Below, in pieces: positions 8,295 through 51,978 of a DNA stretch of 64,000 bases. This stretch comes from Amphiscolops sp. MND2022 (taxonomy: Eukaryota). The DNA lies in NCBI GenBank assembly GCA_964187785.1, contig OZ076409.1:56670001-56734000 (forward strand), written 5' to 3'. The notes under the pieces are model-generated. The model ran no database searches. It saw only the letters and a list, made by a program, of their open reading frames with translations, and was not told the origin of the DNA. The number at the start of each line of letters is the position of its first letter. Within the stretch, counting starts at the first letter, position 1. The position numbers and the translations under genes were made by a program.

Positions 8295-8382
8295 TGAAGC
8301 GAGAAAAGTTTGAATTGTGCTTTGAATACAATTGGTCATGACCAATTGTATTCAAAGCACAATTCAAACTTTTCTCGCTTCA
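8295..8382. repeat. 88-bp perfect spacer-less palindrome
   Basis: TGAAGCGAGAAAAG...TGGTCATGACCA...CTTTTCTCGCTTCA, centre at 8338/8339. Confidence 0.95.
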
Positions 8383-10724: not shown

Positions 10725-10735
10725 TTTCCCCCTCT
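10725..10735 (-). promoter_or_regulatory. Polypurine tract of element 1
   Basis: AGAGGGGGAAA abuts the 3' LTR. Confidence 0.85.
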
Positions 10736-10803
10736 GCAATTGGATGAGAGATATCCAATTGGGTTCCGTTGCCGTCCAGATTGTTGCTGTGGTCGGTATA
10801 CCG

Positions 10804-16234: not shown

Positions 16235-16264
16235 TGTAGTGAAGATTTTTCTGATAGTTCAGAA

Positions 16265-16278
16265 TGCTGACTGCGCCA
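16265..16278 (-). promoter_or_regulatory. Primer-binding site, tRNA-Ser type
   Basis: TGGCGCAGTCAGCA directly follows the 5' LTR and is complementary to the 3' end (...UGCUGACUGCGCCA) of invertebrate tRNA-Ser. Confidence 0.8.
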
Positions 16279-16469
16279 TGTTGTATTCTATGAGAATATC
16301 TCAATTGAAAACGTTGTGTAAAATTACGATGTTTTTTGTAGCTCAATAAGTATCATAATGAGGTCGAGCTTTAATTACAGAACTAAATGTATGTTGGTAA
16401 ATAAGAACATAAAATGGCAACAGATTGTTTATCATGTTTGTCAACAGGTCTCATTTCTGTTACTCTTCA
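16279..16469 (-). repeat. 5' LTR of gypsy element 1
   Basis: Direct repeat of 10534-10724. Confidence 0.96.
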
Positions 16470-32646: not shown

Positions 32647-32857
32647 GTTGAACTTCATAATAAACCGTGCTTCATAATAAATATCATGTAATGATACCCC
32701 TGGCATACTAGCAATTGACCAGAATCTATGTAGACCAGTGACAGAGCAGCTGAGAAATACTGATTGCAAAATCCCGTCATTTGCAAAATGGGAGCCCGGG
32801 TTGACCCTCTTACTAGCATCTTGGCTGTCTTGGCAAGATCTTGCCAAATTCTTACTA

Positions 32858-33577
32858 TGTAACGTCAAGCTAGCAGCTACATTCCAGAACTGGGACAATG
32901 CTCAGGTTGCCTTAACAAGAGACCAATGTCTTATAACTACCTAAACATTAGTTTTTGATCCCAAGTGGTCTCTGCAGGGACTTTTCCAAGACGCCGAGGA
33001 GACTCCTCATATTAGAGCTCCGTGGCGACGTGCCGGCACACTCAAAGTCCGGACACGTCCCACAAGCACGTAAAAACAGTCCTAAAGGCTTCCCGCGATC
33101 CTACATATCTCCGAGGTCCGAAAACAGGGGTTTAGGCAAGGCTCATTTCAATTATGTGAATAACGTCTAAAATCAACAGTACGAGGATCTGGCAGATTCA
33201 ACATCACCATATATCTGCAAATAGTAATCAAAAACAACATAACTAATCAAATTAGGCTTTTCCAGCGCTTCTGTACTGATTTTGCAGTTTTCTTCATCTT
33301 CTTCTGATATGGGACATCTGGATCGAAGGCCATTTCTAGTACAATATACAATTTTCTGGGGAGATGACACAATTTCCGCGATCTTCTTGTCTCCTCATAC
33401 CGTGTGGATGTTCTTTCTTCTCTTCTGGGTCGGGGGGGGGGTTGTCTTTTTCGTTGTGTGTGCTTCTCTTTTTTTGATTTCAACGACCTGCTAGGTCGGC
33501 CATTTTGGATTCGCACATTTTCGACTTTTTCAACGAATTTTTGGTGCAAACTGGTATGTCGATTGGTGGACGTTACA
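32858..33577 (-). repeat. 3' LTR of the giant element
   Basis: Direct repeat of 51259-51978, with a 9-bp terminal inverted repeat TGTAACGTC. Confidence 0.97.
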
Positions 33578-33585
33578 TCCTCCCC
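33578..33585 (-). promoter_or_regulatory. Short polypurine tract
   Basis: GGGGAGGA abuts the 3' LTR. Confidence 0.7.
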
Positions 33586-34052
33586 GGGCCACTGTTTGTC
33601 GTCCTCGGCAAACGGAGAAGGGCGTACCACTACTTACAAATGGTGTTAGCAACATCATTTCCAGTTTTTGTTCTTTTTTTGATCTTACTGCTTCAAAATC
33701 TCGATTTAGCACATTTTTGTCAATTAAGGGACATTAAAAACCAGTTACTTTAAAACTCTTTTCATTTGTTCGACTCAGTTTAAAACTTCTTTTTCTAGGG
33801 TGGTTGCACTTTTGCGACAGCTAGCCAGTAAAACAAAGAATAGATCTCTTTTACTAAAACTTCAATTGCACTGTGTTTAAGCAAGCAGGCAGGTACCAAG
33901 CTGGGACCAACCCGCTGGGTAGTTACACTCACAAAACTATGTTAGTACTTTGTTAACTAAAATTTAGCACTTATGTTCTATAATTGCCAAGGTTTCAGAT
34001 GTTTTAGTTAGTTTGGTTTGGTTTGTGATAGCATCAAAGTTCAGTTTCCATC

Positions 34053-34601
34053 TCACTTGTTGCTAGCGGCATCCATGACAGTGTCCTCTTCCTGCAACCC
34101 TTCATTTAGTGATACTGCTAATGCTTCTGACGATGATGGCTCTTGCTGATTCAAGTCTGGTAACCCACTGAGTTCAAGTTCAATATCAGCTGCCTGTAGC
34201 CTTGATAAAGTCACAGATGTGTCCTCCGCTACGTCTAGTGACACTGCTTGGTCATCTGAAGTAGTAGTTGTGATACTGTGCGTGGGTTGGTTGGCTTGTG
34301 CAGGATGTGAAATGAATACATCAGTATTTGCTGCTGCGGCTGGTGTGGTATTTGAATGACTCATAATTGACACTGCGGAAGTTGGATTGCCAGCGGCAGA
34401 AGTCTCCTCGTGCCCTGCTGCCCGTCCTGTCGAGGTAGAGCCCGCTGGGCATGCTTCTGGCAGCTGGTTTGCGAGGTCCTGGCGTCCGTAACTGGTGAAG
34501 ACTTCCCTGTAGGTCCCTACTGCATTTAGGTAACTGGTATAGACAGAATTGCTCTCTCCTCTCTGTTTGGCAATCAGGCTCATGAAGATCTCCATGGCCA
34601 T
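34053..34601 (-). CDS. Probable true C-terminus of ORF2, separated by a 1-nt frameshift
   Basis: Removing one base at 34603-34605 joins ...EEIMKKQSK to MAMEIFMSLIAKQ...DAASNK, giving a protein of about 1389 aa from ATG 38223. Confidence 0.65.
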   Translation of the reverse strand: MAMEIFMSLIAKQRGESNSVYTSYLNAVGTYREVFTSYGRQDLANQLPEACPAGSTSTGRAAGHEETSAAGNPTSAVSIMSHSNTTPAAAANTDVFISHPAQANQPTHSITTTTSDDQAVSLDVAEDTSVTLSRLQAADIELELSGLPDLNQQEPSSSEALAVSLNEGLQEEDTVMDAASNK

Positions 34602-37600
34602 CTTTGGATTGTTTCTTCATTATTTCTTCATTTAGAGGCAAAGGTTTTCGATTGGGTTCCTTGGCGATCTTTGGGACTGTTGCTTTCAATGCTTGATATC
34701 CTTGGTAGATCATCCTGTCTACTATTGGTGGATCAGCCCAATGTGTGGTTCTCGATAGAATATTGGCTGTGTCGGCTCGCGGTTCCGCTCGTGGGTTATA
34801 CATCCGGGACATATCGATCACTACTCGATGTTGGAGCGTCTCTGGCGTGGAGCCTTTTCTTCTTCCACCCAAACGTTGCACTGCATTGGATAGTACTCTA
34901 AGGATTCCAGGTTCATCCCAGCCAGTGAAGTGTTGCAGGGCCCCAGTACTAGGCTCAACGGGAGCGTGCAGCCATTCCACAGGGTGAAGTTCTAAGGGCA
35001 TGGGGATAGCGCACCGCGCTCTGGCTCGGATCAAGGCACCAAAGTTGTACTCTACCTGCTTCTTGTCCTTGATTATAGTAAACGCCATTGGTGGTCGGAA
35101 ATTGGTAAAGTTACGTACTAGCGCATGGAAGTCTGGCGGCCTGGCGTCGTCTTCCGGGTCTACGAAATGCAGGATTGACAGTGTGGGTGCGCTAGCGGCG
35201 ACCCTAAGTGGCTGCGTGGGGTACCTCAGAGCCATTACTGAGCCAAATATTGGCCAGATGATAGGAGCGATTAAGGGGATTAAGTCTTCCGTTTCCACCA
35301 ACATTAGACTGGCGACTTGTGATGGGAATAGAAAACCTGGCAGGTTTTTATCATTGCGTCTCTGACTGTGTGGGTCGTCCAAGGTGCTCATCATACCGGA
35401 GACATTGACCCAGGCTGAATAAATCCAAGCTAACATTGTCTCTACATTCTCGGTTAGCTGGGCGCGCAACTTTAAAGCGCCTGCGGGGTCCAGTGTATTC
35501 AAAATGGCGTTGATCCAACTTCTCCGGTTCTTTGCAAAGATAAGGAAGCTCAGCAGACTGGAGTTAGTCTTGCCTAGGATTAGCCCCTGCACTAAATGCA
35601 CAGGGCCTTTGTAGACGGCGCTTAGGCCGACGGCCATCAGGTAAGCCAAGATCTCTGCGATTGTGGCTCGCTGCATTGCTTCTATATATAATTTTGTCTG
35701 TTGTTCGTCTAAACTACTCTCGCTTGATACCATGGTCGGCACCCAAAATGGTGAAATATTGTAAAGAAATATGGGGAAGGGAATTCCATGGCTTTCCGCC
35801 ACTTCCACTAGAGTTCTCTGCAATGTTTCATGCCATGACTGGTAGGAGTGCTCTGGGTTCGCACGGTTTTCTTTTGCCGTCCTTTGCGCCAACACCACCA
35901 GCAGCACTAGGGTGGGCGAGACCATGTTGGGCTTTGAATCAATTGCCTGCATTGCTACTGGGAATACTGTTGTTTCTGTTCTGTTTTGCTTGATCTTTTC
36001 GGTCTCCCTGAAGAGGGCTAACAGCTCTTTGTGGAATTTTGCTTCATGGGTTTTCTCATCCAGTGTCGATTCATCTCTTCTCTCAAACCATCCGTTGTCG
36101 ATCATGTTAGTGCGTTCCTTTCCGTTCGGCTCTTTGACTTGGCGTACCCCGTTTTCATCGAAGGTACGGTGCGCCATTTGCATTCCAAAGTCGAAGGCAG
36201 TGGCATCATCGGCAAGTAATTGGGAGTTGCCCGAGTATCCTGTACAAGCCTGCAAGGCTTTCGAAATTTCTGCCAGGAATGCAGAGTAGGAATTTTCGCA
36301 TGGACGCCAGGTTGTGGCGCTTACTCTCAGGTTCGGTGCCACGATATGAAAGGATAATTTTTGGGCGTAGGCTGCTTCCGATATGAGATATAACAACTGT
36401 TGGAGTGGCCTGGGCAGATACACATATCCTGGGGGAGATACAAAGACTACCCCTACAGCGGGTTTCTTTTGTTGTGCCCGCCTGATAACGTTTCTCATCG
36501 TTTCAATGTACGCTGTCACTTCAGCCGTCATCACTTCCTCCGTTAGGTTACGGTTGCTCTCTGCGAAATACCTTAGAGTTCCTCGAAGAGCCAGGTGGTC
36601 AATCACGTTGCCGTAGATCAATAGCGGGGGAAATGGGATGGTTTCTGCATGATTAGCAGCAGGGCCAAAGACCTTGCAGGTCACTTCGGCCATTTCTTCT
36701 AATGAAGTACAGGGTAGGTTCATTACGCGAACATCCATCAGGGTGTTGTTCATGTTCGCAGTTGCCTTCATTGTAGAATCCATGAACAAGGCAATTCTCG
36801 TCTTTTGTAGCATTTCTTTGCCCATGGGGAGCAAAGTCGTCACATCTCTCATGAAATCGCGACTTCTCATCAACTGTTCGTCATATCTGGCTGGTCGTTG
36901 TACGGCTAGTTTCACCTTTGATGGCAATGGTTTCACTAACGACGACCTGTCTCTGTGGAGATCCTCTCTTACTCTTTCAAACCATGGAGGAATACGGTCC
37001 AATAGGAGTGTCGGATTCTTTACTGGTCTCAGATAGTGTATTCCAATGGATGCTCTTTCAAGGTTCCTTACATCCTCTGGGTTTCCTTTGCTGCTGGCCG
37101 TTTCAAATTTCTGGATATCCAGCCCTGAGTCCGGATTCCCCGACCTTGCTTCTTTCTGCAGACGCACAGCGTCTCTTGCAGCTATGTCGTACTGCCGGGC
37201 TTCCGTCTGTGATAGGAGCTCAGAGAATCGCACTCGCCTAGCTTCCGGCTGTTGCACTGGTGAGGGGTTCGGGCTGGAGTTTGTGGCTTCGGAATTGGCC
37301 AATTCTCTTGCTCTTTTCTTTTGAACCAATTGTTCAATCTTGTTTTGTTCTTTACGATTCAGGATATCTCGCAGATCAATAGGAGCCTTTGCTGCTCGTC
37401 TCTCCGTTTGCTCCTGTTCTTTTTGTTGTTCCTGTTTGTCTGGATCAGCCTGAAAACCTATTAGGTGCTGTGGATCCGTTGGTGTCATAGGCGTCAAGGC
37501 ATCATACGAGTCTGGTACCCCAATCACGTCTCTCATGATGGGTACGTCAAGCGGATTTCGCATCATGACTGTTCTTGGTTTCTGGCTGCTAGTTTCATCG

Positions 37601-38349
37601 GTGGTATGCGCACTAGTGTGCATTTCCTCCACCCCTTCCCCCCTGAAAGAGGAAGGGCGCATGAGTTCAGGGTCGCCCTCCGCTAATCGCCGGACGCTGA
37701 TGGAGGCGGACGGTGGGGGTGGTGTCAATACTGGTGGCGGTACTGGGGGTAGTAGGCATGTGATCTGTTGGAATGACGGTGTATGTCGAGATTGGTTGTT
37801 GTGGGCAGGTTGGAGTTGTTCCATGGGAAGCCTAGCAGGCTCATCATACCTCATGCTGGACCTGTGGTCGTCAAAGTGGTGGGTCAGATCATGACCGCGC
37901 CATGTACCATTGTGGAGTTCTGCTGTCCTGCGGTATGAACCGATTCCAACAGATATGGATAGGGTGAAGTCTGGGTGCATCTCCAGAGACTGCATTTGTG
38001 CAATCAGCATAGTCATCCCCGTTACCAGTGTCGGAAGGGCGCCTTCTTGAAGAGTTGATTGGACTAGACCAAGCTGGTCTATTGTGGCTTGGGCCCCATC
38101 TACGGGCAGCGAGGGCACGGGAGCTAGAGGTGTGGCTGACTGATTTTGGCTAGATTGGGAGGTGCTCGGCTGCGAGCTTGTTGTTGAAGGAGCTGGCAGG
38201 CGCGTTCTTGCCGACTGATCCATTATATGAATAGGTAGCACCTTAGACAAAAGATTACGTTGAGTGTACTGCAAATATGGTGATATGCGGCTGGCTGTGT
38301 CAAGTGCGTAGGAATTGACAGGACTGAACTGAAAAACAACAGACATCAA
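34321..38349 (-). CDS. ORF2 of the giant element (env position): large protein with a putative SGNH/GDSL-hydrolase-fold domain, likely start ATG 38223
   Basis: 1342-codon ORF. Disordered S/Q/P-rich N-terminus. SGNH-like blocks IALFMDST / NLPCTSLEEM / PPLLIYGNVIDHL / VVFVSPPG / TWRPCENSYSAFLAEISKAL at about 36250-36804. Hydrophobic helical C-terminal region. Confidence 0.85.
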   Translation of the reverse strand: MMSVVFQFSPVNSYALDTASRISPYLQYTQRNLLSKVLPIHIMDQSARTRLPAPSTTSSQPSTSQSSQNQSATPLAPVPSLPVDGAQATIDQLGLVQSTLQEGALPTLVTGMTMLIAQMQSLEMHPDFTLSISVGIGSYRRTAELHNGTWRGHDLTHHFDDHRSSMRYDEPARLPMEQLQPAHNNQSRHTPSFQQITCLLPPVPPPVLTPPPPSASISVRRLAEGDPELMRPSSFRGEGVEEMHTSAHTTDETSSQKPRTVMMRNPLDVPIMRDVIGVPDSYDALTPMTPTDPQHLIGFQADPDKQEQQKEQEQTERRAAKAPIDLRDILNRKEQNKIEQLVQKKRARELANSEATNSSPNPSPVQQPEARRVRFSELLSQTEARQYDIAARDAVRLQKEARSGNPDSGLDIQKFETASSKGNPEDVRNLERASIGIHYLRPVKNPTLLLDRIPPWFERVREDLHRDRSSLVKPLPSKVKLAVQRPARYDEQLMRSRDFMRDVTTLLPMGKEMLQKTRIALFMDSTMKATANMNNTLMDVRVMNLPCTSLEEMAEVTCKVFGPAANHAETIPFPPLLIYGNVIDHLALRGTLRYFAESNRNLTEEVMTAEVTAYIETMRNVIRRAQQKKPAVGVVFVSPPGYVYLPRPLQQLLYLISEAAYAQKLSFHIVAPNLRVSATTWRPCENSYSAFLAEISKALQACTGYSGNSQLLADDATAFDFGMQMAHRTFDENGVRQVKEPNGKERTNMIDNGWFERRDESTLDEKTHEAKFHKELLALFRETEKIKQNRTETTVFPVAMQAIDSKPNMVSPTLVLLVVLAQRTAKENRANPEHSYQSWHETLQRTLVEVAESHGIPFPIFLYNISPFWVPTMVSSESSLDEQQTKLYIEAMQRATIAEILAYLMAVGLSAVYKGPVHLVQGLILGKTNSSLLSFLIFAKNRRSWINAILNTLDPAGALKLRAQLTENVETMLAWIYSAWVNVSGMMSTLDDPHSQRRNDKNLPGFLFPSQVASLMLVETEDLIPLIAPIIWPIFGSVMALRYPTQPLRVAASAPTLSILHFVDPEDDARPPDFHALVRNFTNFRPPMAFTIIKDKKQVEYNFGALIRARARCAIPMPLELHPVEWLHAPVEPSTGALQHFTGWDEPGILRVLSNAVQRLGGRRKGSTPETLQHRVVIDMSRMYNPRAEPRADTANILSRTTHWADPPIVDRMIYQGYQALKATVPKIAKEPNRKPLPLNEEIMKKQSKDGHGDLHEPDCQTERREQFCLYQLPKCSRDLQGSLHQLRTPGPRKPAARSMPSGLYLDRTGSRARGDFCRWQSNFRSVNYESFKYHTSRSSKY

Positions 38350-38528
38350 TTTGGGCTAAAAGAACGTTCTTGACAAGTACAATTAGGCTACAGTCGAAGT
38401 TAAGAGACACATGATTAAAATAGAGTCGGTCATAATTAAAACCCAATTCGGCGATTGACTAAAACAATACAGGCGTTACAAGTTATGAGTGGGTTTCATT
38501 GTAATTACCCTGAACGTGCCACTGTAAT

Positions 38529-41500
38529 TCAATCAAGCTTAGACTTTCCATGATCAAGGCGTGTCTCAATTGAAGCAATGGACACATACACTCTGTCGTG
38601 TAAGACAACGTCAATATTGGAATCGATGAAATGGTCCCTCAACATTGAATACCAAGCTGGTAGCATGTTGATGGATCTTTCAGGGTCGTAGATGGGCAAA
38701 TGGATTTGGGTAGCGTGTGCTCGCATCAGCTTCTGTATTAGGTCTACTAGGCATAGATGTAGCACATCATGGAGGATGGGGTGTTTATTAGAGGCTCTCG
38801 TGATTAACAATATGATCTCGTTATTCCATGGCGCTGTTGTTGATTTCGGGAGGCGTATGGCCTTCCCCACAGCTGGGCGTAGCCGGAAGATTTCTTCTTG
38901 GCCGTATTCTCGAACAACATAGCGGGCCATTGCTGAGTACGCCAATAGGTCTGCTGGACAACAGATCGCCACAGTTCCTCGGGCTTGCAAAATGTCAGTT
39001 TCTTCGTAGGAAATCCATGACAAGTAATTCGGTTTGAATTTTGGGTGGGTCGTTAATAGCCTCCCAGTGATGGTGCTGTGATCGTTTTGGCCAAGTGAAA
39101 GATGAGCTAGAATGGCTTTATGATCTTGCCAGACTGTTCTACGCAAAGGCCTCGCTCCCATATTCGTGCAAGACCAATCATGAACTACGGATAGTGCTTC
39201 TAGCACGGTCACTGGATTTTCAAAAGTATACGTGTACTTGTCTAGTAGGTGTATTTTAGCTTGACGACAGAAAGTGATAGCTAGTAGCTGTAACCAATGT
39301 TGACTAAGGAATTTTCCACGATAAATGTCTGCTAGATGGAAGCACAGGGTGTCCTCAAACTCTACTAGTGTACGCAAGTTTTCTAGGCAGGTCAGTAGAG
39401 TTCCTGGGTTAACCGGTGATGATTCGTCCAAGGTGGTGACTAGTAACCACCAACCTGTCGTTGGGTGATATACGTCTCCCGGTGGTAAAGTCACACCATA
39501 TTGTTGCCATAGCTTCTGAGCTGTGATACAGCGTACCATTGCTATTTTCATGTCCTTCGGATCTAATTCGCCAAACACAATCGATGGTGGGAGTGGGGGA
39601 ATATTTGCTGCTAACGTGAATTCTAATCCACTTTTGTCATGCCACGTCCATTCCTTAAATCGATAGGTGGGGCTATCTGAGGGCGATGTTTCATGCATGG
39701 CTTTCAGCGTGGTTTCCAAGGGTGGGACCACACCTGGTCCGATGCTCGAATATGTCTTTTCCACAGTAATTACAATGTGATACACCCGTGAAATGTCTTG
39801 GTCATGGGTTTGTACGTGTCGAATTGTGTGTTGCATATGGTCTTCCGTCGTTTCAATGACAGCTAGGTCTGGGGCAGGAGCGGCTACTCCCCGGGCCAAT
39901 CGGTTGTCCGGTGATTTCCCTTCGACCAGGTTGACGCAGCTACAGTTGCGAGAACCACAGTTTCCACACCGATACTTGGGTGCTCTGTTGCGTCGTAGCA
40001 AATATGGTGGGGCTTGTGAAGGCGTTAGTCGTTCCGCTTCTGGTTGTTCCGGTGATACGCTTTCTGCAATGTTGGGCAATGTCATTGCACGTTCCAATGC
40101 TCGTGATTGTGCTCTGGTTTGTACTCTGTCTCTCGATTTAGTGCCTGGTCTGTTTGTTCTTGTGAGTGCTCTACTTGATGAGCTGGTACTTCCTCTTCTA
40201 CGCCCTGGAGGTCTACCTCTTGGTCTGCCTCTTCTAGTTGCAGTTCTCCCTGATGTGGGTGGTGCTTCTATGCTTTGACCCGGTTTTAGAATCTCCCTGT
40301 CAGTTGCTTCTTGGGGTTCGGCTTCCTCAACAGGTTCTGGTCCTACCGAGCTACCAGCTCGGGAACTGAACAGTGGGAAATTACTCAATGTATCGGTTAA
40401 TGCTGGGTTCGATAGCAATGGTGCGGAGGTTCCCGACGGTGAAGGTATCAGATTCTGTGCTGGTTCAGGTAAGATTTCTTCCTGATCAGAGAACAATGGT
40501 TCTAGGTCATCGATGTCAGGAAAAACTACTGGTTGCTGGGTTTCTTCGATGGGTTGTTCTATTGGTTCTGGATCAGATTCTGATTCGGATGGATATCCAA
40601 AGTGACTAAACCGTCTACGTGGGATTCCTTGTTCCAAAGCAGATTGAGTGCGTGTCTGAATCGTGCGGGGGGGGACGGGCGCAGTTGGTTCCATTTCAAA
40701 TGATGCCTCCGGCAGTTGTTCTGGAAGAAACGAATCTCGTGAAATATCAGAGGTAATTTCCTCATTACTTTCCTCCACATACGGGTCTGCCATGATGGCT
40801 ATATTCTGGTCTAAGCCGAAGGGTTGATGTGCTGCCCATTCCCAGGGCGCTGGCACATGTTTCTTCAAGCGCTCGAAATGAACTTTTTGGCCCGTGTCTA
40901 ACACGTAGAGTCGTCCATCTTGTAATACATCTGTGACCTTGTGAGGTCCACGCCAGGCACGAAGGAGTTTACGGGTGCCACCCTTGGGAATTATGTGGCA
41001 AAAAACCCAAACAGCGTCACCCACAGCATGAGCTTTTGCTTTCAAATGCCTGTCGAACTTCTGTTTTTGTCGTACTTGCGCCTGATGAGTGTTTCGGCGA
41101 ACAAGCTCGTGGATTTCTTGTTGTCTAGCAAGTAAGTGCTCTACAAATTCTTCTTTGGACCCAAACTCTCGCGCGGCAAATTCTGGGTATATGAACGAGA
41201 GCGGAATGGATTTTTCCGCGCCATGTTGGAGCATGTACGGGGAGAATCCCGTCGTCGCGTGTCTGGTTGAATTGTAGGCACCCAAGACTCCGTCTATGTG
41301 CTCATCCCAATCTGACATCCTGCGTGACGTATAGACTCTGAGCAAGGTGAGCAACGTTCGGTTCTGACGTTCAACTAAACCGTTGCCTCTAGGATGAGCT
41401 GGAGTAGATGTTACTTTAGTTACTTGCGAAGCTTTCATCAATTCTTGAGCAATCTCAGCAGTGAAGTTAGTGGCATTGTCCGACTGCATCCTGGCAGGAG

Positions 41501-44500
41501 TGCCATGTCTTGCAAACCATTTGTTCAGGATAATCTTTGCAGTCGTTTGAGCGTCGTACTCATCATGCGCACATGGGATTGCTTCTGCAAACTTGGTGAA
41601 GTGGTCGATGATAACTAACAATCCGTTATTTCCTGATGTTGTCTTGCACAACTTCAATTGGTCAAACTGCACCAAGTCGTTGAAATTGCTACTGTTGGTA
41701 CTTTGGAAGGGATAACAGGGATTCCCAGCGGGATGCTTTGTCTGTTGGCATGTTAAGCAGTGCTTAATATGATTGACAACATCGCGTTTGATGCCTGGCC
41801 AGGTGTGGCGTTCTTGTATTCTCGCCAACACTTTGCCAACGCCTTGGTGTCCTGATTCATCATGCGCTCTGTACAAGATTTCATGCTGGTAGAGTTGGGG
41901 CATGACAATCATGCATGGTCGTACGTGCATCGCGCGTTGCTGTGGAATGTAGTTGACACACAAGATGTCATTCTGATTCAAGAACAGTAAATCTTTCTTT
42001 TGATGGAAGTACCGTTTGGCGAAGTCCTGCACGTCCTCAGGGAACAGAGTGTCTTCCAATGGTTCGTTCTTCATGAGTTTCCTCAGTGCGAGAAGGTGGA
42101 CATCCCTGTTTTGAGCTAGATGTAGATCTTTCAATCCCCGCAGTGTCGATTGGTGTTCGTGCAGCTCAGTACCAGCTAGCCTAAGGACATCGGCTTGTTC
42201 TTGGCACTGCGTTGGCAATCTACGCAACGCTGGGTCCCGTTGGGTGGTATCGAGACGTGCCGCTGGCACTTTGGTCGTTACGCTAAGGATACAATTTGGC
42301 CTGTCGTCTTCAGTCGATGTGGGAGTTGTTTCCCATTGCACTTGTGGGTACCATGGTATGGAATTCGAAGAGGAATCTGAGGTCAGCTTCTCCTTTGGTG
42401 GCTTCTTCAAAATGTATAGCACAGGGAGTTGTGCTCGAGCTTCTGGTGGAAGCTCCGGATGGTCCGGAATGAATTTGCCATGTTTGTCGATATATGGCAC
42501 AGTTGGGAGTTCTTCGTAATCTTTCTGGGACATAAAGCTGAATCCCTTGCTCACTTCTGGTAGAGCTTCCACAATCTTCTCTCGATGCACGTAATCGTTG
42601 GTCCTTTTGCTAAGACCGTCCGCATTTCGGTGTTGCGTGCGTGGTCTGTGGATCGTCTTGAAGTGATATTGGTCAAGGCGCGCAATCCAGCGTCCAATCA
42701 TGGCTTGGTCCATTGAATACGTCTTCAGCCACGAGAGAGCCTGGTTGTCCACGCGCAGCGTGAATTCCCGACCCGCAAGGTAGGAATGGAATTTCTCGAT
42801 GAAATAGAATACCGCATACATTTCCAGCTTCGGGGCGCCATAATTCAATTGTGTTCGAGTCAGTGACTTGCTACCATAAACGATGGGACGGAGAATGGTT
42901 TTCCCCTTGTATTCTTGTTCCTGGTGCAGTATGCCGGCTATAGCAACTCCACTGGCATCTGTATCCAAAACAAAACGTCCTTCATCATTCGGGGCTGCCA
43001 AAGCTGTGGCATCAGCTAGTGCCTGTTTCACTGAATCAAACGCTTCTTGATGTTTTTCTTTCCAGTGGAAGTGTTGGTTCTTCTTTAACAACTCCTGCAT
43101 AGGCTGTACTTTGGCGGCGTGGAAAGGAATGAAGTCTCGGTAGTAGTTCGCGAATCCAAGGAAGCTTTGTAGCTCTTCTCTATTTCTTGGGGGCATCCAC
43201 TCTTGGATTTTGCTTACGGCAGCCGGGTCTGGCTTTATGCCTTCGGCAGAGACTACTCTTCCAAGGTATTTGGTTTCAGTGCGCATGAAATCACATTTCT
43301 CGGCTCGCATCTTGAAACCGGCCTCTCTGAGACATTCGAATACTTCTTTGATTCTCTCCAAATGATCTTCAATGGTCTCTGTAGCGATTACTATGTCGTC
43401 AATGTATGCCATGACAACACTTCCATGCCGTTGCTGGATTCTTTGCAGAGCTCGAGTGAAGGATCGCTGAAAGGTGGCCGATGCATTGCATAGCCCGAAG
43501 GGCATGCGTCGCCATTCAAACAGGCCAAGCTCACATGCGAAGGCGGTTTTTCTACGATCGCGCTTCTTCAGCGGGATCTGCCAAAAGGCCCACGCTAAGT
43601 CAATGCTCGTGAAGATTTTTGCATTCCCAATTCTTGAGAGGCTTTCGTCAATCCTGGGCAATGGAAATGCGTCCTTTACTGTTACATCGTTTAGCGGGCG
43701 GAAGTCACAGCAAAAGCGAAGCTCGCCTGTTTTCTTTTTTACCATGACTATGCCACTGGCCCACGGAGAATAGGAGGGTTGTATCAGTCCAAGGGCCAAC
43801 AAATTTTGCACTTCCTGATTGGCTTTCGCTGCCTTATCAGGGGACATTCGCCTTGTTCCTTCTCGGTGTGGTATAGCCTCCGGCTCTAGCTCTATCCTGT
43901 GCTTTGCAATCTTACACCTACCTATGTCAGACTTATTTTTCATGAATAGATCTTCGTACTCATTTAAAATAGTCTCTAACTTATCTCTCGCCTCTTCCCC
44001 CCATGAAGAAAGGACGGAAGAGAGGTCAGGGCCTGGGATTGCTTTTAGCAGTTGAGGATCTGTTCGCTTTCGCTTTTCACTCTCTGACAAATCTAACTCA
44101 GACGGTTCAGTCGAAGACAAGAAGTTTTGGGCAAAGGAACTAAATTCAGAACTGGTGTCCATATCAACATTCTGTTGTATTTGATGTACATGTTCGGCAA
44201 AAAGCTTCGAAGCTTCACCATTATTTTGCAAAGGAATTGAGTTCAATACAAAAGTGGTAAGCGCCGCTTTGCCAACAACAGTTTGTGCTTTAACCCTTAC
44301 CCGTTCTTTGTCAGTTTGATTACGTAGGGCTACGAATATTATGCCCTCTTCTCCCACGGAGGTTAGTGTATCTTCTGAAACAAAGACTGAGCGAGATTTG
44401 ATGCTACATGAATGGACCATTACATTACGAAATAGGAAATCATTTGGTTGTTGTGTGATGATCTTTGCGCGTACTACTTTTCTTTCAAATGGACCTAGCA

Positions 44501-47500
44501 CGACCTCATCAGTGGAGATAACAAACGATGGCTCTTGGTCACTTACCTCATGTACGGTTTTGAAGATTCGAGGTGTTTTGGGGTCCCTGATAGTAACTTT
44601 CATTGCCGTCAAATCCACCAACACGTTGTATGTACGCAAGAAGTTGCGACCCAGGAGGAAATCTTCTGAACCAATGTTATCCGCTATTACTACGAAATTG
44701 GTCTTCAGAGTGTATCCGCCAAGCTGAAAGCTTACGTCTTCAGCTATGCCAACAGTGGTGATGTTCTTGCCATTGGCAGCGAAGAGTTCAATGTCATGTG
44801 GTGTCAGGCTCAGCGCATGTTGGGAGGCAATCTTTTTGTATGCGCTCAAAGATAGAATTGAGACTCCCGAACCGGTGTCAATCATGCCGAAGAGTGGTAT
44901 CGGCTTTTGCAGAGGGGTTCCGAATGCCACAACTAGCGAAGCTCGTTCATCAATCTGAGCTTCCCCTTGTGCATCCTGTACTCCGATGTTATAACAACGC
45001 AGTTCTTGCCTGCCTAGATAGAGGCCTTGCGGAAAGTGTCCTTCCAGGACAACAATCGCATCAGACCTAACGTCCACGCCGTCAACCGTGATCGCTATGG
45101 GGACTGGCGCTATTGTCTTCACTCTCTGGACTTGAGCTAGTTTAGTCTCATCTGTTCTGGTGAAATGGGGTAATGGCCTGGAAGCTATCGTCAAGTTGGT
45201 ATTGCGGCAGAGTTCTTCCTTCAATTGCGCCAAGGTTAGGTTTGGGCGCGCCTTCTGCTCTGCCGAGAGTAACAAATGAATGGATATTAGCGTCTCAGTG
45301 CAGTCGGGCGCTGGGGCTTCAAGCGTCGTCAAGATTTGCTTTTCACCACAAGTCACGACCACCGGGCGTGAGGGGCCGCCATCTTCCGAAGTCGAAATCA
45401 CCCTTATTTGATCCTCTGAATCACGGTAGTCCCTGGAGTTCGTGACAGGGGCGTACCACGCCGTCCTTACCTGTTCTTCTGTCGCTGCATTGTCGGGTAT
45501 CGTACAGTCTGATGCCACGTGGCCGGAGCGACCGCAATTGACACAAAAAGCTGATGTGCTTTGTTCTGGTAGGGATGCGGGCACCAAGTCGTCATTCATG
45601 CCGCGCGGGTTTGATGGACATGTCCATTCTCCAGCTACGTTCGTGCGACACGAGTTAACTATTTGTTGCATTGGCTTCCTCGCTCGGTCCTTCAATGGGC
45701 AATCAGCTACAAAGTGTGAAGGGTCTCCACAGTTGAAGCATGCACGCTGCGGTTGCTGTCTGAAAGGCGCAGACGGTTGTTGGGGTTGCTGGGCGTTGGG
45801 CGGTTGAGGGGCTGGCGCCTGCGGTTGGTTTTGTTGATTTGCGGCAGCAGGAGGAAATTGCTGCTGATGTTGCTGGGGTGTGGGATAACTTTCAGATCGG
45901 GCCGCACCTCGCATGCGTAGGTATTGTTGCACGGTGAATCGTAGGGCCTCCACAGTTGGAGGTGTATCAACATACTGTTCCTGCGCGTACATGAGTGCAA
46001 GGTTTCGTTTCAGTTCGAAGCTACGTACTCCCTCGATGAATTTTTGCATGATTTCATAGCGTCTCACCGCCACTTCTTCGTTGGGGAAGCCTTGACTGCG
46101 TAAACCTTCCAATGCGTCCAGATATTGCATGTAATCCTCGTCGGGGGACTGATTTCGAGTGCGGAACTGTTGCTGAATTTGGATTTTGTTGGATCCCGTT
46201 CCAAACCTTCGTGCTAGTAGCGCGAAGACTTTTTCTTCAGTATCACGTTCCGCTTCTGATTTGTTCGTTATGTAGTCACGTGCCTCGTTTTCCAGAAATT
46301 CTACTATGGTCCATGCTTTATCCAGGGGGGTGTCCTTGGCGTGAGCTTTTCCCAGGTAGCGTTTCATTAACATCAGCCAACCATCCACTATCCCGTCGCG
46401 TGTGCCGCGGTATTTGGGCGGTTTGTTCTTGGTCTCTTTTGCGGCAAGTAACGGTTCCAGACCTTTAGACATCGCGGTGGTTATTGCTTCTGCCAACGTC
46501 TGACTGGGTATGGCATTCGGAGGGTTGTTGTTAGCAGTCCCGTTCACTGTTGCTGTATTCAAGTTCCTTTTGGTATTTGTCCTTCTCTGCGTGCTAGAGG
46601 CCAATGGCCGTGGTTGGGAACTATCGTAAGTAAAGGCTAAATGTTTCGCGCCCAGGACTGAAGAGGTGGCCGTGTGATATTCAGTGTTTCCCGTAACGGT
46701 GTTCATGTCACTGGGCATTTGGCCACTAGTCGCCGAATAGTAATCTCCCGTCGTCGAAGCACCTCTCGCATATGGGTCGAATGAAGGAGGGCCGGAAATC
46801 TCACAATATTGCGCTTCAGTTTGGTTTGCCGTTGAGGCATGGGTCTTCGCCGGCCTCTTTTGGTATGTTGCTGGGGGTTGCAACTTTGGTTGTTTCGTGT
46901 GATCAGATTTCATCACATTTTGACGTTGGGCAACTTCCCGATACGTAGGCCGCTGAGTCGGGAGCGCACTTGTGGATGGAGCATCTGCAGGGGCAAGTGC
47001 CACCGGCACAGGTGAGGGGCGGCTTGGTATCGTTGCTATCACGGTCTTCACCCCTAGGGTCAAGTCCTGGACCGTGGTCATAAGGTCCACCATGCGTTTA
47101 TCAACATCTAGGTCTCTGCGATATATCATCTCAGACATATTCTTGTGACGCTCCTCTGCTAATTGGTCTCTTTGCGCCATTATGGCTGTCATTTCTGATA
47201 TTCGCTTCTCCGTCAGGTCTTTAACTGTTGTCACGGATGTTTCGATTTTGCCTTGATTGGCGCGTCCTTCCATTTTTATTTCGGCTACTTCTTTTCTCAG
47301 CTCTTCCATTTTCATTTCCAGGACTCCTGCCCGTTGGATATGATCATTGTTTTCTTGGGCTAGCTTTACCTGGACCCGTTTCAATTGCTCCATGCTATGT
47401 CCAAAGTCTTCCTTTATTGCCTCGGTCTCTTTGATACCTCGGGTGATTGTTGAATTAGGGGAGGCTGCGCTGCCAGCATTAGAGTGTTGGGATATTGCTG

Positions 47501-48137
47501 TGCGCTCTAACCGCAAGACACTGGGGTCCAACACTGGTGGTGTGGCAAAGGCATAACTTTGTTGAGTCCAGTCTTTCCTGGTTTTCCGTTTTCCCAGTTG
47601 GCTTCCTGAGGGGATCATCGCGGTATTACCCAACGTGTCCCTACTGACTTCGAATACTGGTGTACCGGAATTCGGTGGGTCCGCACTCGTGCCCACATGT
47701 GGAGTAATATCTCCCAAAGTCATTCCCACCTTTGCATTCCCTACCCACTCGCTGATGTCCGAGCTAGTAGCTGCTTTTCTATTCGAGTTTGGCCAGTCCC
47801 CGGTAGCAATCACGGAAGCGTTTAAGGGAGGCCACACGTTGGTGCGGTTCATGGGAGTCCCAATTTCAATCTCAGCGCTATCCGGTGACGCCTGCGATGA
47901 ACTTGATTGGCTTGCTTGCGCAATTTGTGAGTTTTGCATCGTGTTTGGTACGTTGTCTGACATGACGTCGTCTAAAAACAGGTCGGCGGTCATATTCAGA
48001 GATGCCATTCCAGCTTGTATGCTCAGCGTGTGCAACCCTTCTATATCATTCGCGAATGGGTTGGTGGCATGAAAACCACGGTACTCGTCAGACGTTTCAC
48101 TCGATGATCTTAAGTACTCCCACTCGCTCAAACTCAT
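38529..48137 (-). CDS. Gag-Pol polyprotein, 3202 aa, single reading frame
   Basis: Coiled coil and capsid-like region (PPKYRGTRDG...). Two CCHC knuckles (45699-45740, 45504-45545). Protease IDTGSG (44871-44879). RT YIDD (43395-43406). RNase H LDTDAS...VDNQAL...NADGLS. Integrase HHCC, D,D,E and GPH motif (about 40860-41900). C-terminal extension of about 770 aa. Confidence 0.97.
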   Translation of the reverse strand: MSLSEWEYLRSSSETSDEYRGFHATNPFANDIEGLHTLSIQAGMASLNMTADLFLDDVMSDNVPNTMQNSQIAQASQSSSSQASPDSAEIEIGTPMNRTNVWPPLNASVIATGDWPNSNRKAATSSDISEWVGNAKVGMTLGDITPHVGTSADPPNSGTPVFEVSRDTLGNTAMIPSGSQLGKRKTRKDWTQQSYAFATPPVLDPSVLRLERTAISQHSNAGSAASPNSTITRGIKETEAIKEDFGHSMEQLKRVQVKLAQENNDHIQRAGVLEMKMEELRKEVAEIKMEGRANQGKIETSVTTVKDLTEKRISEMTAIMAQRDQLAEERHKNMSEMIYRRDLDVDKRMVDLMTTVQDLTLGVKTVIATIPSRPSPVPVALAPADAPSTSALPTQRPTYREVAQRQNVMKSDHTKQPKLQPPATYQKRPAKTHASTANQTEAQYCEISGPPSFDPYARGASTTGDYYSATSGQMPSDMNTVTGNTEYHTATSSVLGAKHLAFTYDSSQPRPLASSTQRRTNTKRNLNTATVNGTANNNPPNAIPSQTLAEAITTAMSKGLEPLLAAKETKNKPPKYRGTRDGIVDGWLMLMKRYLGKAHAKDTPLDKAWTIVEFLENEARDYITNKSEAERDTEEKVFALLARRFGTGSNKIQIQQQFRTRNQSPDEDYMQYLDALEGLRSQGFPNEEVAVRRYEIMQKFIEGVRSFELKRNLALMYAQEQYVDTPPTVEALRFTVQQYLRMRGAARSESYPTPQQHQQQFPPAAANQQNQPQAPAPQPPNAQQPQQPSAPFRQQPQRACFNCGDPSHFVADCPLKDRARKPMQQIVNSCRTNVAGEWTCPSNPRGMNDDLVPASLPEQSTSAFCVNCGRSGHVASDCTIPDNAATEEQVRTAWYAPVTNSRDYRDSEDQIRVISTSEDGGPSRPVVVTCGEKQILTTLEAPAPDCTETLISIHLLLSAEQKARPNLTLAQLKEELCRNTNLTIASRPLPHFTRTDETKLAQVQRVKTIAPVPIAITVDGVDVRSDAIVVLEGHFPQGLYLGRQELRCYNIGVQDAQGEAQIDERASLVVAFGTPLQKPIPLFGMIDTGSGVSILSLSAYKKIASQHALSLTPHDIELFAANGKNITTVGIAEDVSFQLGGYTLKTNFVVIADNIGSEDFLLGRNFLRTYNVLVDLTAMKVTIRDPKTPRIFKTVHEVSDQEPSFVISTDEVVLGPFERKVVRAKIITQQPNDFLFRNVMVHSCSIKSRSVFVSEDTLTSVGEEGIIFVALRNQTDKERVRVKAQTVVGKAALTTFVLNSIPLQNNGEASKLFAEHVHQIQQNVDMDTSSEFSSFAQNFLSSTEPSELDLSESEKRKRTDPQLLKAIPGPDLSSVLSSWGEEARDKLETILNEYEDLFMKNKSDIGRCKIAKHRIELEPEAIPHREGTRRMSPDKAAKANQEVQNLLALGLIQPSYSPWASGIVMVKKKTGELRFCCDFRPLNDVTVKDAFPLPRIDESLSRIGNAKIFTSIDLAWAFWQIPLKKRDRRKTAFACELGLFEWRRMPFGLCNASATFQRSFTRALQRIQQRHGSVVMAYIDDIVIATETIEDHLERIKEVFECLREAGFKMRAEKCDFMRTETKYLGRVVSAEGIKPDPAAVSKIQEWMPPRNREELQSFLGFANYYRDFIPFHAAKVQPMQELLKKNQHFHWKEKHQEAFDSVKQALADATALAAPNDEGRFVLDTDASGVAIAGILHQEQEYKGKTILRPIVYGSKSLTRTQLNYGAPKLEMYAVFYFIEKFHSYLAGREFTLRVDNQALSWLKTYSMDQAMIGRWIARLDQYHFKTIHRPRTQHRNADGLSKRTNDYVHREKIVEALPEVSKGFSFMSQKDYEELPTVPYIDKHGKFIPDHPELPPEARAQLPVLYILKKPPKEKLTSDSSSNSIPWYPQVQWETTPTSTEDDRPNCILSVTTKVPAARLDTTQRDPALRRLPTQCQEQADVLRLAGTELHEHQSTLRGLKDLHLAQNRDVHLLALRKLMKNEPLEDTLFPEDVQDFAKRYFHQKKDLLFLNQNDILCVNYIPQQRAMHVRPCMIVMPQLYQHEILYRAHDESGHQGVGKVLARIQERHTWPGIKRDVVNHIKHCLTCQQTKHPAGNPCYPFQSTNSSNFNDLVQFDQLKLCKTTSGNNGLLVIIDHFTKFAEAIPCAHDEYDAQTTAKIILNKWFARHGTPARMQSDNATNFTAEIAQELMKASQVTKVTSTPAHPRGNGLVERQNRTLLTLLRVYTSRRMSDWDEHIDGVLGAYNSTRHATTGFSPYMLQHGAEKSIPLSFIYPEFAAREFGSKEEFVEHLLARQQEIHELVRRNTHQAQVRQKQKFDRHLKAKAHAVGDAVWVFCHIIPKGGTRKLLRAWRGPHKVTDVLQDGRLYVLDTGQKVHFERLKKHVPAPWEWAAHQPFGLDQNIAIMADPYVEESNEEITSDISRDSFLPEQLPEASFEMEPTAPVPPRTIQTRTQSALEQGIPRRRFSHFGYPSESESDPEPIEQPIEETQQPVVFPDIDDLEPLFSDQEEILPEPAQNLIPSPSGTSAPLLSNPALTDTLSNFPLFSSRAGSSVGPEPVEEAEPQEATDREILKPGQSIEAPPTSGRTATRRGRPRGRPPGRRRGSTSSSSRALTRTNRPGTKSRDRVQTRAQSRALERAMTLPNIAESVSPEQPEAERLTPSQAPPYLLRRNRAPKYRCGNCGSRNCSCVNLVEGKSPDNRLARGVAAPAPDLAVIETTEDHMQHTIRHVQTHDQDISRVYHIVITVEKTYSSIGPGVVPPLETTLKAMHETSPSDSPTYRFKEWTWHDKSGLEFTLAANIPPLPPSIVFGELDPKDMKIAMVRCITAQKLWQQYGVTLPPGDVYHPTTGWWLLVTTLDESSPVNPGTLLTCLENLRTLVEFEDTLCFHLADIYRGKFLSQHWLQLLAITFCRQAKIHLLDKYTYTFENPVTVLEALSVVHDWSCTNMGARPLRRTVWQDHKAILAHLSLGQNDHSTITGRLLTTHPKFKPNYLSWISYEETDILQARGTVAICCPADLLAYSAMARYVVREYGQEEIFRLRPAVGKAIRLPKSTTAPWNNEIILLITRASNKHPILHDVLHLCLVDLIQKLMRAHATQIHLPIYDPERSINMLPAWYSMLRDHFIDSNIDVVLHDRVYVSIASIETRLDHGKSKLD

Positions 48138-51100
48138 TTTCGCTCACTCAATCTCAGTTTTCCACTAATTGATGCGGCAAAAACTTTTTCTCTTTCTGTC
48201 TTACTCTCACTCCTTCCCTTCAACAAACGAAATTAAGGCAACTCGAATTGGAAGTATTAATATCCCTTCCTCCGATTGTCTAACTAAACTGTTATACTAT
48301 TTTGTTCTGGAGCTTGTAGCTCGCGATTGCCTTCTGGGTTCTAAGTCAAGATCAGCTGGCTTTCATGAACACAATACTATTAATTACATGCACTAACTCA
48401 AGATTACATGCACTGGTGCTAATCACCACTAATCTGAACAGAAAGGTTTGCTTCCCCACTAACTGGAGATAGTTATCCTATTAAAAGTTAAAGTTAAGCC
48501 TTTTAAAAAAAATTTTTTTTTGAGGTACTTTGACAAGCTACTTGCACTAAACTACGCTTGATCCAGCCACAGGCTATGCGGTTGGAGCGAACAAAAAGGT
48601 TTTGGCACGCTAGTAGGGTTTTACGGAGGTTTATTCAAGAAATCACCGTACTTTGCTTCACAAACGTGCTTTATGTTACTCGCATTGCCCTTTAATAAGA
48701 GAGCACACGAGGGATTACTACAAAAAGGGGAATTGGGGAATAGACCTTGGGGGTGAGCAAGTGTCAGAACACCTTAGAACGAGAGGATTTTCCCAATCTG
48801 ATCGTAGCACGGTCAATAGAAATACAGATCTTCACTATTTCAAATGCTATTACACTCAATTTCCTGTCTCGAGACGCACCGCGTCCGAAGTCTAAGTCTC
48901 CTAGAAAACTCCTAGATGCGTTCTAGCTTTCTCACGTCACTTCTCAGTCGAGGCCAACGTGGCTATAGCTATTAGCTCGCACTTAGGTGACTTCGGTGGC
49001 CGTTAGTAGAGAAAACACGTTTTTTGTGTTTTTCACTCCTATGTCTCGTCAACAGTTTTCTAATGAACCCAAGATCTTAGGGTTGAGCTAGCTCTATTCT
49101 GATTGCCTCAACAGGACGTGCTATGGGTGGCTAGGGTAGAACTAGGGTTGTTTGAGCCCTCACTTGCTACTACACCTACGAAATGTATGCTATTTTTCGC
49201 AAAATTTCTCAAAATCAGCAATTTTTTCACCAAGGTGCACGCCTGGAACAGGTGAAAATCACTTCTAGAGCTAGTAGCGACCTGAAAATTTAACACGGTA
49301 TACTACAGTGGCTAAATCGTGGGAAACTAACCGCCGATTGCGCCAAAATTGTTTCCTCGTGACTCAGGGTCGCTCACCAATGTTACTTGAAAAATCGACT
49401 ATGTTGCAAAATTCACACAAGTTTGTCAAACTCGCCTTCCAGGCTTCCTAGCTACTTGAAATTTTGTATGCGAGCGTGTATTATGCCCACGTAACAGAAA
49501 AACAATATAGCGGGGTTCCCAGGTCGATATTCAGCAATCCGAGTTGACAAAACTATGCTGTACTCTATATGTCACTTTCAAGGGTCAAAATTCACAAAAT
49601 TGTCAATTTCTCTAAGTTGGCCAGTAGCAGGCTGCTCAAAATGCACAAATCGTCGGGATCTAGTGCCGTATGTACGAAAATGCAAGAATTTTAGTGCTGG
49701 GATACCTGCAAGGTATTGCACTATGCTCAACTAAAATTCAATTTTTTCGACATTTTCGGATCATTTTTGAGCAAAACTGCGGCTAAGATTTCTCGATCAC
49801 TAGTAATGGTAGCGCTACGAAACTTACACCACTAACGTAACTTTTTGCGGTCTACACGATGGTGCAATCCGTTTTGGGCTACTCCTGCTAGGAGAGATTT
49901 CGACTTGTCTTGGAAACACTACTCCAATGTTCCGATAATGTCGCAAAAATAGCACGTCTTAGGCTATTTCTCAACAACCACTGGTTGGAATCACTCGCGG
50001 TTTTCGGCGTTAGTAATCTAGTACTCTCTACTAACAGAAAATAGGCGAGCAAAACCTGGCAGGTTCCAAATAAGGTCTCTCAAAATTGATTTTAGGTTAC
50101 ACCTTGGACACTCTGGGAACACCTATGAAAAACACGTATTTTCCCTAGGAACTTTTTATTTTTCGGTTCCCAGAGGTTCGGGATGGTTTTAACAGTACAG
50201 TAGGAAGGTGTAACTACTTTATTTAGGGGACTGGGGTTCTTTCAATTATTACTTTTGATGTTATACCTCTCAGGTCTATGGGGTCCTGTACTCAGATCTA
50301 TATATATTGAAAGAAACAAGCTGTTAAAGTTTCAATTTTAATAGGGGAGCCTTAAAAAACAACTTGGTAGTAGTGTCTTGTACTACCAAGCTAGGGAACA
50401 AGGTTTTTGGGCTGATCTGAAAGCTTTGGGTCAAGTGCCCAAGACTTTGCCCTCGTCAAATTTGGTCTTTTTGGCCAATTTCGACTTTTTCTCAATAAAA
50501 TTCACACAATTTCTCGATTTTACACCAAGTTGGCCCAACAAATTTTTCTGTTCCTGACCTAGCAGGTCTGATGGAACGTTTTTCCCGTATTCCCAGTGGC
50601 CGTATCCTTTTTCACAAATTTTCACCCTTCAAAATCCGTAAAATCGCTATTTGAGCTATATAGGGTGTTGTTTTCAAGGTTTTCACGCTCAAATTTTTAA
50701 TCAACTGGTTCAAACACCCTCAGGGTATTTTTCCCAGTTAGTTTTAGTGGGGATAGGCCTGGGAATATGCTTTTTGGGCCGATTATTAGCAAGAATTGGC
50801 AATATAACCCGATTGTCGTGGGTATTCGGCAACTAGAGAGGTACTGGAGGTGTGACGTCTGAGGTGCTCACACACTGTCGTCAGCTAGCTGGGGCCTTCA
50901 GCACTCGTCCTCTCGGTCCTCATACATTGCCAATTTACTGAAATAGAGCTGCAAAACCCTTTAAAACCAGTTCCGGATAGGCCGGATTCACTTTTTCAAC
51001 AGATATTATCGAAATACAGGGGGTACACTGTCTGAAATCGCCGATTTTCGGTTCCAGACCTCGGAAATACGCTGGAAACGCAGGAAAAACACTAATACAA

Positions 51101-51224
51101 GGCCCACAGGGCTAGAATAAGGCAATAAAAACAATCTAGGACCCACCAGAAGAATTTCCTAGATCCGGACCTAGCAGGGCCGGAAAGCAGGAAAAACTCC
51201 AATTATGGCGAAAAGATGGAAAAT

Positions 51225-51242
51225 GTCCCTTGTGGGGCGCCA
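51225..51242 (-). promoter_or_regulatory. Primer-binding site, tRNA-Lys-like, 16 nt inside the 5' LTR boundary
   Basis: TGGCGCCCCACAAGGGAC matches 15/18 positions of the tRNA-Lys3 PBS TGGCGCCCGAACAGGGAC. Confidence 0.7.
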
Positions 51243-51258
51243 TAAAAACTATCCTAGA

Positions 51259-51978
51259 TGTAACGTCAAGCTAGCAGTTACATTCCAGAACTGGGACAAT
51301 GCTCAGGTTGCCTTAACAAGAGACCAATGTCTTATAACTACCTAAACATTAGTTTTTGATCCCAAGTGGTCTCTGCAGGGACTTTTCCAAGACGCCGAGG
51401 AGACTCCTCATATTAGAGCTCCGTGGCGACGTGCCGGCACACTCAAAGTCCGGACACGTCCCACAAGCACGTAAAAACAGTCCTAAAGGCTTCCCGCGAT
51501 CCTACATATCTCCGAGGTCCGAAAACAGGGGTTTAGGCAAGGCTCATTTCAATTATGTGAATAACGTCTAAAATCAACAGTACGAGGATCTGGCAGATTC
51601 AACATCACCATATATCTACAAATAGTAATCAAAAACAACATAACTAATCAAATTAGGCTTTTCCAGCGCTTCTGTACTGATTTTGCAGTTTTCTTCATCT
51701 TCTTCTGATATGGGACATCTGGATCGAAGGCCATTTCTAGTACAATATACAATTTTCTGGGGAGATGACACAATTTCCGCGATCTTCTTGTCTCCTCATA
51801 CCGTGTGGATGTTCTTTCTTCTCTTCTGGGTCGGGGGGGGGGTTGTCCTTTTCGTTGTGTGTGCTTCTTTTTTTTTGATTTCAACGACCTGCTAGGTCGG
51901 CCATTTTGGATTCGCACATTTTCGACTTTTTCAACGAATTTTTGGTGCAAACTGGTATGTCGATTGGTGGACGTTACA
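51259..51978 (-). repeat. 5' LTR of the giant element
   Basis: Direct repeat of 32858-33577. Confidence 0.97.

Follow-up and report, generated by a model that had tools for sequence, protein, structure and literature searches.

In a 64,000-nucleotide stretch of the genome of Amphiscolops sp. MND2022 (contig OZ076409.1, positions 56,670,001 to 56,734,000; hereafter the window), a long terminal repeat (LTR) retrotransposon was found to carry, downstream of its 3204-aa gag-pol frame and on the same, minus strand, a second large open reading frame (ORF), here called ORF2. Part of its product (aa 511-712, encoded at 36220-36825) is predicted to adopt the SGNH fold, with a Ser, an NxxDH motif and an Arg-Pro pair standing where SGNH proteins have blocks I, III and V. 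The canonical catalytic triad is gone while the pocket is conserved like an active site, and because of this equal conservation we read the aligned residues as recording a selected change rather than decay. A preliminary description, made from the DNA letters alone, had proposed a non-envelope protein in a same-strand ORF downstream of pol, with an SGNH-like domain whose catalytic set was altered, and in these respects it held up. It had further suggested lipid binding and, in place of Env, a role in membrane targeting or transfer between cells; as an interpretation it is thus supported in part.

The fold, predicted to be a three-layer alpha/beta/alpha arrangement with five parallel strands, was confirmed by structure prediction and three fold searches, and weakly by profile-profile comparison. 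AlphaFold2 modelled aa 511-722, with 20 sequences, at a predicted local distance difference test (pLDDT) score of 88.8 and a predicted template modelling score of 0.87. When this model was compared with 48,161 chains by VIA-align, the top match was the GDSL-like lipase 3p94 (Z 12.4, root-mean-square deviation (rmsd) 3.5 Å, 168 residues aligned); most titles among the 50 rows shown name GDSL/SGNH-type esterases, and the remaining ones we take to be the same SGNH fold. Foldseek likewise placed SGNH proteins at the top against the PDB (best E 3.4e-4), the ZfL2-1 esterase (4c1b) ranking seventh at E 3e-3, and agreed when run against viral proteins. An independent 738-aa model (aa 498-1235, mean pLDDT 69) repeated the SGNH result and added, at aa ~798-987, an all-helical domain modelled with confidence, followed by a poorly modelled helical remainder.

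For the profile-profile comparison, an SGNH profile was built from bacterial domains and domains of the same genome and validated against the PDB. The ORF2 domain matched it with a probability of 43.6% and a pairwise E of 2.4e-4 over 131 collinear columns; the score of 27.2 compares with maxima of 21.0 in 100 block shuffles and 19.1 among 22 decoy family profiles, and also beat reversed, response-regulator and macrodomain profiles. Single SGNH sequences scored slightly above decoys (p 0.024), while a shallow SGNH profile gave a probability of 4%. A hidden Markov model of the domain failed to rank SGNH ORFs over decoys (one in the top 10, as against five for the control middle region). Pfam found no family in ORF2 itself; among its relatives GDSL_2 appeared in one of 16, at E 0.2, and an SGNH family in none of 37. 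PDB sequence searches with ORF2 returned chance matches only, among them a designed pentatricopeptide repeat dismissed as a repeat artefact, and tblastn against phage gave no match to ORF2.

Residues were counted in a 20-row alignment of relatives down to ~25% identity, using only those rows that have a residue at the position. In the ZfL2-1 esterase (4C1B) the SGNH blocks read GDSIV, FPGARV, HVGTND and DxLHPS (PMC10792757; published sources are cited throughout for the passages drawn on). In ORF2, D526 (14/14 rows) and S527 (13/14; codon 36775-36777) follow strand 1 (E11-15 of the model), so that the Ser reported by the preliminary description is indeed kept. The Gly of block II is present in one of 18 rows, the other 17 having Cys, Leu or His. 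After strand 3 comes the NxxDH motif, with N583 and D586 in 19 of 19 rows and H587 in 17, the two most distant relatives having Tyr or Asp instead. The GxND-like reading of this block did not stand: the Gly of GNVIDHL occurs in only 2/19 rows, and two residues separate the invariant N583 from D586 (NxxD), which in an ND pair would be adjacent. The loss of the Asp and His of block V was borne out, as the catalytic His position is an Arg (R684, codon 36304-36306) in all 20 rows, followed by P685 in 19 of them, and the Asp position is variable, with nine different residues. The equivalence of block V is based on a global profile alignment and on its place before the last helix.

The role that we favour for the ORF2 product, tentatively and at somewhat less than an even chance, is that of a cytoplasmic multidomain pseudo-esterase which binds an anionic acyl ligand and tethers particles to internal membranes. 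ORF2 would be a conserved accessory gene of a clade of Ty3/gypsy-type LTR elements, expressed from a spliced, env-style subgenomic RNA. Its SGNH domain would bind e.g. a fatty acid or phospholipid, with the invariant Arg in the catalytic His place pairing with the carboxylate or phosphate and with Ser, Asn and Asp keeping the pocket; together with the helical domains it would then tie particles to internal membranes, no membrane fusion being involved. The proposed membrane role is taken from the precedent of the ZfL2-1 esterase. Retroelement SGNH domains are thought to serve ribonucleoprotein assembly and membrane-dependent transport (PMC5408684; PMC3905857).

Several points weigh against this role. 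The hhalign profile alignment contains a gap at block III, and the residue equivalences come from profile alignments and secondary-structure position. The SGNH domain is not basic, its isoelectric point (pI) being 5.6-8.3 in six copies, as compared to 10.8 for the ZfL2-1 esterase. A segment at aa ~1025, in a part modelled with low confidence, reaches a hydropathy of 2.06-2.28 in three of eight relatives scanned, which makes a membrane-inserted helix possible. For approximately 500 conserved residues C-terminal to the SGNH domain no fold could be assigned, and the main function of the protein may lie there. Finally, the near-invariant nucleophile Ser and the His of NxxDH fit equally well an enzyme that is active through a rewired site.

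Such an enzyme, with Ser527 as the nucleophile and His587/Asp586 or Arg684 as the base, would be an acyl-hydrolase or acyl-transferase with a lipid or acylated protein as its substrate. We consider it possible, if doubtful. It accords with the counts for Ser (13/14), Asp586 (19/19) and His587 (17/19), with a ratio of nonsynonymous to synonymous substitution rates (dN/dS) of 0.05-0.09 in the domain, and with the record of SGNH enzymes that can do without the side chain of Asp (PMC10792757), but less well with the fact that the two most distant relatives have Tyr or Asp in place of His587 and with a block-II Gly retained in just one of 18 rows; moreover, the literature passages on SGNH enzymes give none with Arg at the base position.

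The preliminary description had assigned a single ORF to 34053-38349; the ORF is there, but in two frames in the window copy, namely a main frame of 1344 aa from stop to stop (34321-38355) and an acidic, low-complexity tail in another frame (34053-34616). The window copy is frameshifted near 34620, and many near-identical siblings are open over 1432 aa. The ATG common to the other subfamilies is that at 38223, not that at 38346. The seven motifs quoted in the preliminary description all lie in a single frame of the minus strand: IALFMDST at 36795 and the others at 36717, 36630, 36450, 36312, 35652 and 35283. From the N-terminus, a five-family alignment delimits a conserved module of ~80 aa (aa ~90-170; 37846-38088), which has no family match, and C-terminal to this lies a low-complexity, weakly conserved stretch of ~270 aa; aa 176-440 are of low complexity and aa 441-514 are basic (pI 10.3). 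The SGNH domain is followed by the all-helical domain of the 738-aa model (35395-35964; pLDDT mostly 71-94), which holds ILAYLMAVGLSAVY, and by a conserved, mostly helical C-terminal region of low model confidence (aa ~988-1235; 34651-35394), which holds LIPLIAPIIWPIFGSVMAL.

The low-complexity and basic stretches would suit an RNA-binding pseudo-SGNH protein similar to the OSK domain of Oskar; the long, disordered N-terminus of ORF2 would then form condensates that take the element's RNA to germ-line granules or protect it against silencing by small RNAs. OSK, whose SGNH fold binds RNA and has no enzymatic activity (PMC10792757), was matched by the ORF2 model at rank 47 (Z 9.3). This explanation appears unlikely, as OSK lies 3 Z units behind ordinary esterases and has Asp in place of the Ser that is retained in ORF2, and as Pfam gave no OSK match to ORF2 at E up to 5; in addition, the SGNH domain itself is not basic.

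The position of ORF2 invites comparison with env. A pyrimidine tract followed by AG, resembling a splice acceptor, lies upstream of ORF2 at 38329-38340 (minus strand), and such a tract was found by eye, no more than ~130 nt from the ORF2 ATG, in seven of seven copies from about five families (an eighth copy fell outside the count), at a chance expectation of ~0.10 per copy. It suggests that ORF2 is expressed from a spliced, env-style subgenomic RNA. On the same strand, in the env position and with an env-like acceptor site, ORF2 might also be regarded as a substitute for Env, inserted in the plasma membrane and mediating the passage of particles between cells, and one conserved segment is moderately hydrophobic. 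This we hold to be very unlikely. In agreement with the preliminary description, a scan by hydropathy alone revealed neither an N-terminal peak of at least 1.4 nor a C-terminal anchor, and the 10 cysteines are scattered. The two hydrophobic helices that it pointed out exist, but peak at only 1.67 and 1.46 in the window copy (Kyte-Doolittle, 19 residues); the first of them is within the confidently modelled helical domain, and the second is the segment that scores higher in three relatives. Furthermore, GDSL ORF3s without transmembrane or coiled-coil segments have been argued to be auxiliary and not env-like (PMC5408684). No fusogen was found in the fold lists, which are filled by the SGNH domain, aa 713-1235 not having been searched alone and aa 45-497 being unmodelled.

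With a 333-aa piece of ORF2, 3204 candidates were found in the genome, and the 121 that were scored are 82-100% identical. Further families have ORF2 identities of about 60%, 57% and 28%. In the 28% family, which was reached via pol, ORF2 follows pol in all six copies fetched, and between families the reverse transcriptase and RNase H (RT-RH) are 75% identical as compared to 28% for ORF2. In another of these families a 1403-aa frame is open in 33 of the 34 best-scoring of 5308 candidates, a sample biased to intact copies. No family examined lacked ORF2. When subfamilies are compared, the SGNH domain has a dN/dS of 0.051-0.087 (four of six window-copy comparisons, those with unsaturated dS) and the rest of the ORF2 core one of 0.03-0.15 (unsaturated dS), including 0.07-0.15 at aa ~988-1235. 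These data support ORF2 as an element-maintained accessory gene under purifying selection; an accessory protein is also what the preliminary description had proposed. Although SGNH folds are common among cellular proteins, a host gene captured and passively carried along is barely credible in the face of thousands of candidate copies of which every scored one is element-type, purifying selection between element subfamilies, co-divergence with pol, and the lack of a named cellular homolog among the matches looked up.

A profile search of 1.84 billion representatives gave 419 proteins at E <=0.001, of which 150 were listed, and none of the listed relatives that were looked up carries an informative name. 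For two of the long relatives, P0228 and P0218, the best match in the genome studied here is only 33% and 30% identical (40 of 3746 and 39 of 3522 candidates scored, respectively), and judging from these identities they are likely to stem from other hosts. Two JGI metagenome scans yielded no ORF2 relative. One relative (P0148) and a 79%-identical esterase (L100) occur in records labelled as bacterial metagenome-assembled genomes, which are likely misbinned eukaryotic DNA. The same genome also holds several families of triad-intact SGNH esterase ORFs (loci L070-L099, with 39 matches to PF13472), which apparently belong to other mobile elements. At three loci (C2 4362373-4399836, L250 and L256) the LTR runs into internal sequence of the element itself, which suggests head-to-tail tandem elements with a shared LTR.

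The element as a whole occupies 32857-51978 on the minus strand, its 19,122 bp, TG...CA ends and 3-bp target-site duplication being defined by the LTR alignment and flanks. The 5' LTR (51258-51978) and the 3' LTR (32857-33577), the latter preceded by a purine-rich tract, are 721 nt each and identical at 717 of 721 positions. The gag-pol frame (38529-48143) encodes protease (PR), RT, RH and integrase (IN), in that order, as identified by Pfam and motifs, and an unexplained C-terminal extension. It contains two CX2CX4HX4C knuckles, at 45740 and 45545, and an integrase motif near 40950 that reads GPH and is of the GPY/F type. Its top PDB sequence match is the Ty3 Gag-Pol (E 1.5e-98), and RT-RH is closest to Ty3. 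Together with the presence of gag and the TG..CA ends, this agrees with the definition of Ty3/gypsy (Metaviridae), from which the length of the target-site duplication departs; the element is a young, 19.1-kb LTR element of Ty3/gypsy type.

The Pol C-terminal extension (38529-39790, minus strand) continues for ~400 aa past the integrase and is ~40% identical across distant families. It has no match in Pfam or the PDB, may consist in part of two internal repeats, at which a pairwise E of 0.08 over 115 columns hints, and has a conserved CxxCxxxxCxC motif ahead of it at 39968; an identity as a macrodomain was tested and found unsupported. A 5' leader of ~3.1 kb lies ahead of gag. Primer-binding sites are normally located 1-3 nt from the LTR end; here a word resembling such a site, TGGCGCCC (51225-51257, minus strand), begins 16 nt inside the 5' LTR end.

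The target-site duplication of 3 bp recurs in the siblings. Out of 18 sibling end pairs, 15 had 3 bp, one had 5 bp (the copy at C7 ~55594181-55613302, L229/L230) and two were unscorable, with element sequence beyond the LTR; including the window copy, and with one further copy left out, this amounts to 3 bp at 16 of 17 scorable sites in the family. The 28% family, which also has TG..CA ends, shows 3 bp at 11 of 11 sites read from the flanks, so that, over both families, 27 of the 28 scorable sites have 3 bp and one has 5 bp, the chance of a 3-bp match at unrelated sites being 0.043. According to Kojima (2025), Troyka elements duplicate 3 bp and other LTR retrotransposons 4-6 bp (PMC12440569), a range outside which the present clade falls. 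Troyka elements, or Kuafuorterviruses, share the PR-RT-RH-IN order and the 3-bp duplication with the clade, but are described as having CG..CG ends, LTRs of 100-400 bp, an internal part of up to 7.7 kb and a CX2CX8-10HX4C knuckle, and as lacking both the GPF/Y motif and an envelope protein (PMC12440569; PMC11673190). The clade, unlike these, has TG..CA ends, LTRs of 721-734 bp, an internal part of ~17.7 kb, a CX2CX4HX4C knuckle, the GPH motif and the large ORF2. In four Gag-Pol sequences scanned, one of them without the Gag part, the Troyka-type knuckle was not found, whereas WRGPH was present in all four. Membership in Troyka was rejected on four features, namely ends, LTR and internal lengths, knuckle spacing and the GPF/Y-type motif, and because of these the clade is likely a second, independent case of 3-bp duplication.

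A 3-bp duplication with TG..CA ends contradicts the 2025 statement of 4-6 bp outside Troyka (PMC12440569). The clade and Troyka form a natural pair for the study of integrase stagger. LTR finders by default require a duplication of 4-6 bp, and those that do so would overlook this very abundant family or trim it wrongly. The open literature, with Repbase, subscription papers and supplements outside its scope, held no report of the clade under the topics of 3-bp duplications or SGNH/GDSL domains in LTR elements. Taken at its widest, the element could represent an undescribed, giant (19-kb) gypsy-type lineage, at very high copy number in one genome and apparently found also in other hosts, with a 3-bp stagger independent of Troyka and with a spliced, rewired SGNH gene in the env slot (Ser kept, Arg for His, NxxDH), which would provide new chemistry and route non-enveloped particles through membranes, possibly between cells; as a whole we consider this picture rather unlikely.

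Elsewhere in the window, a second, decayed element lies at 10534-16469 on the minus strand, with 191-nt direct repeats 5.7 kb apart and several broken minus-strand frames between them, and a perfect palindrome of 97+97 nt without spacer is found at 8379-8572.

Lastly, ORF2 can be compared with known SGNH proteins. The closest parallel is Vesta, an LTR element of bdelloids, whose ORF3 downstream of pol is a GDSL esterase with invariant S, G, N and H (Rodriguez, Kenefick and Arkhipova 2017, PMC5408684). Both are of Ty3/gypsy type and have an SGNH/GDSL domain in an extra ORF after pol, without env, and the position is hence not new; the preliminary description overlooked this precedent as well as the 3-bp duplication. 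As compared by description, the Vesta ORF3 has intact catalytic residues and was found by profile search, whereas ORF2 has His replaced by Arg, has lost the Gly and is invisible to Pfam; unlike in Vesta, its SGNH domain is also part of a protein of ~1,400 aa that contains three more conserved regions. The ORF1p esterase of ZfL2-1 (CR1/L2, RTEX, Penelope; PDB 4C1B; Schneider et al. 2013, PMC3905857) is likewise an SGNH fold encoded by a retroelement, and its block II, FPGARV (PMC10792757), resembles the MPGSTL of the most distant ORF2 relative. It differs in belonging to a non-LTR element, in its gag position, conserved active site, coiled-coil partner and pI of 10.8 (PMC3905857), and ORF2 matches ordinary ZfL2-1-type esterases of the same genome only weakly. 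Oskar OSK (PDB 5A4A) shares the SGNH fold without the catalytic triad (rmsd 4.2 Å, 160 residues aligned), but is a host germ-plasm protein with Asp for Ser and not the top match of the ORF2 domain. The GDSL derivatives of Athena-L are retroelement SGNH domains which also lack catalytic residues, including the His, but they occur in Penelope-like and not LTR elements and were grouped with PC-esterases (PMC5408684). A His-less SGNH domain inside a multidomain protein of ~1,400 aa was not found in the same open literature. Compared with the literature covered, the new features are the conserved replacement of His by Arg within a large multidomain protein and the 3-bp duplication outside Troyka. 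The capture of SGNH domains by retroelements is thereby extended to a His-less form, strongly selected across deeply split families, and the question of catalysis or binding in retrotransposon SGNH domains becomes directly testable.

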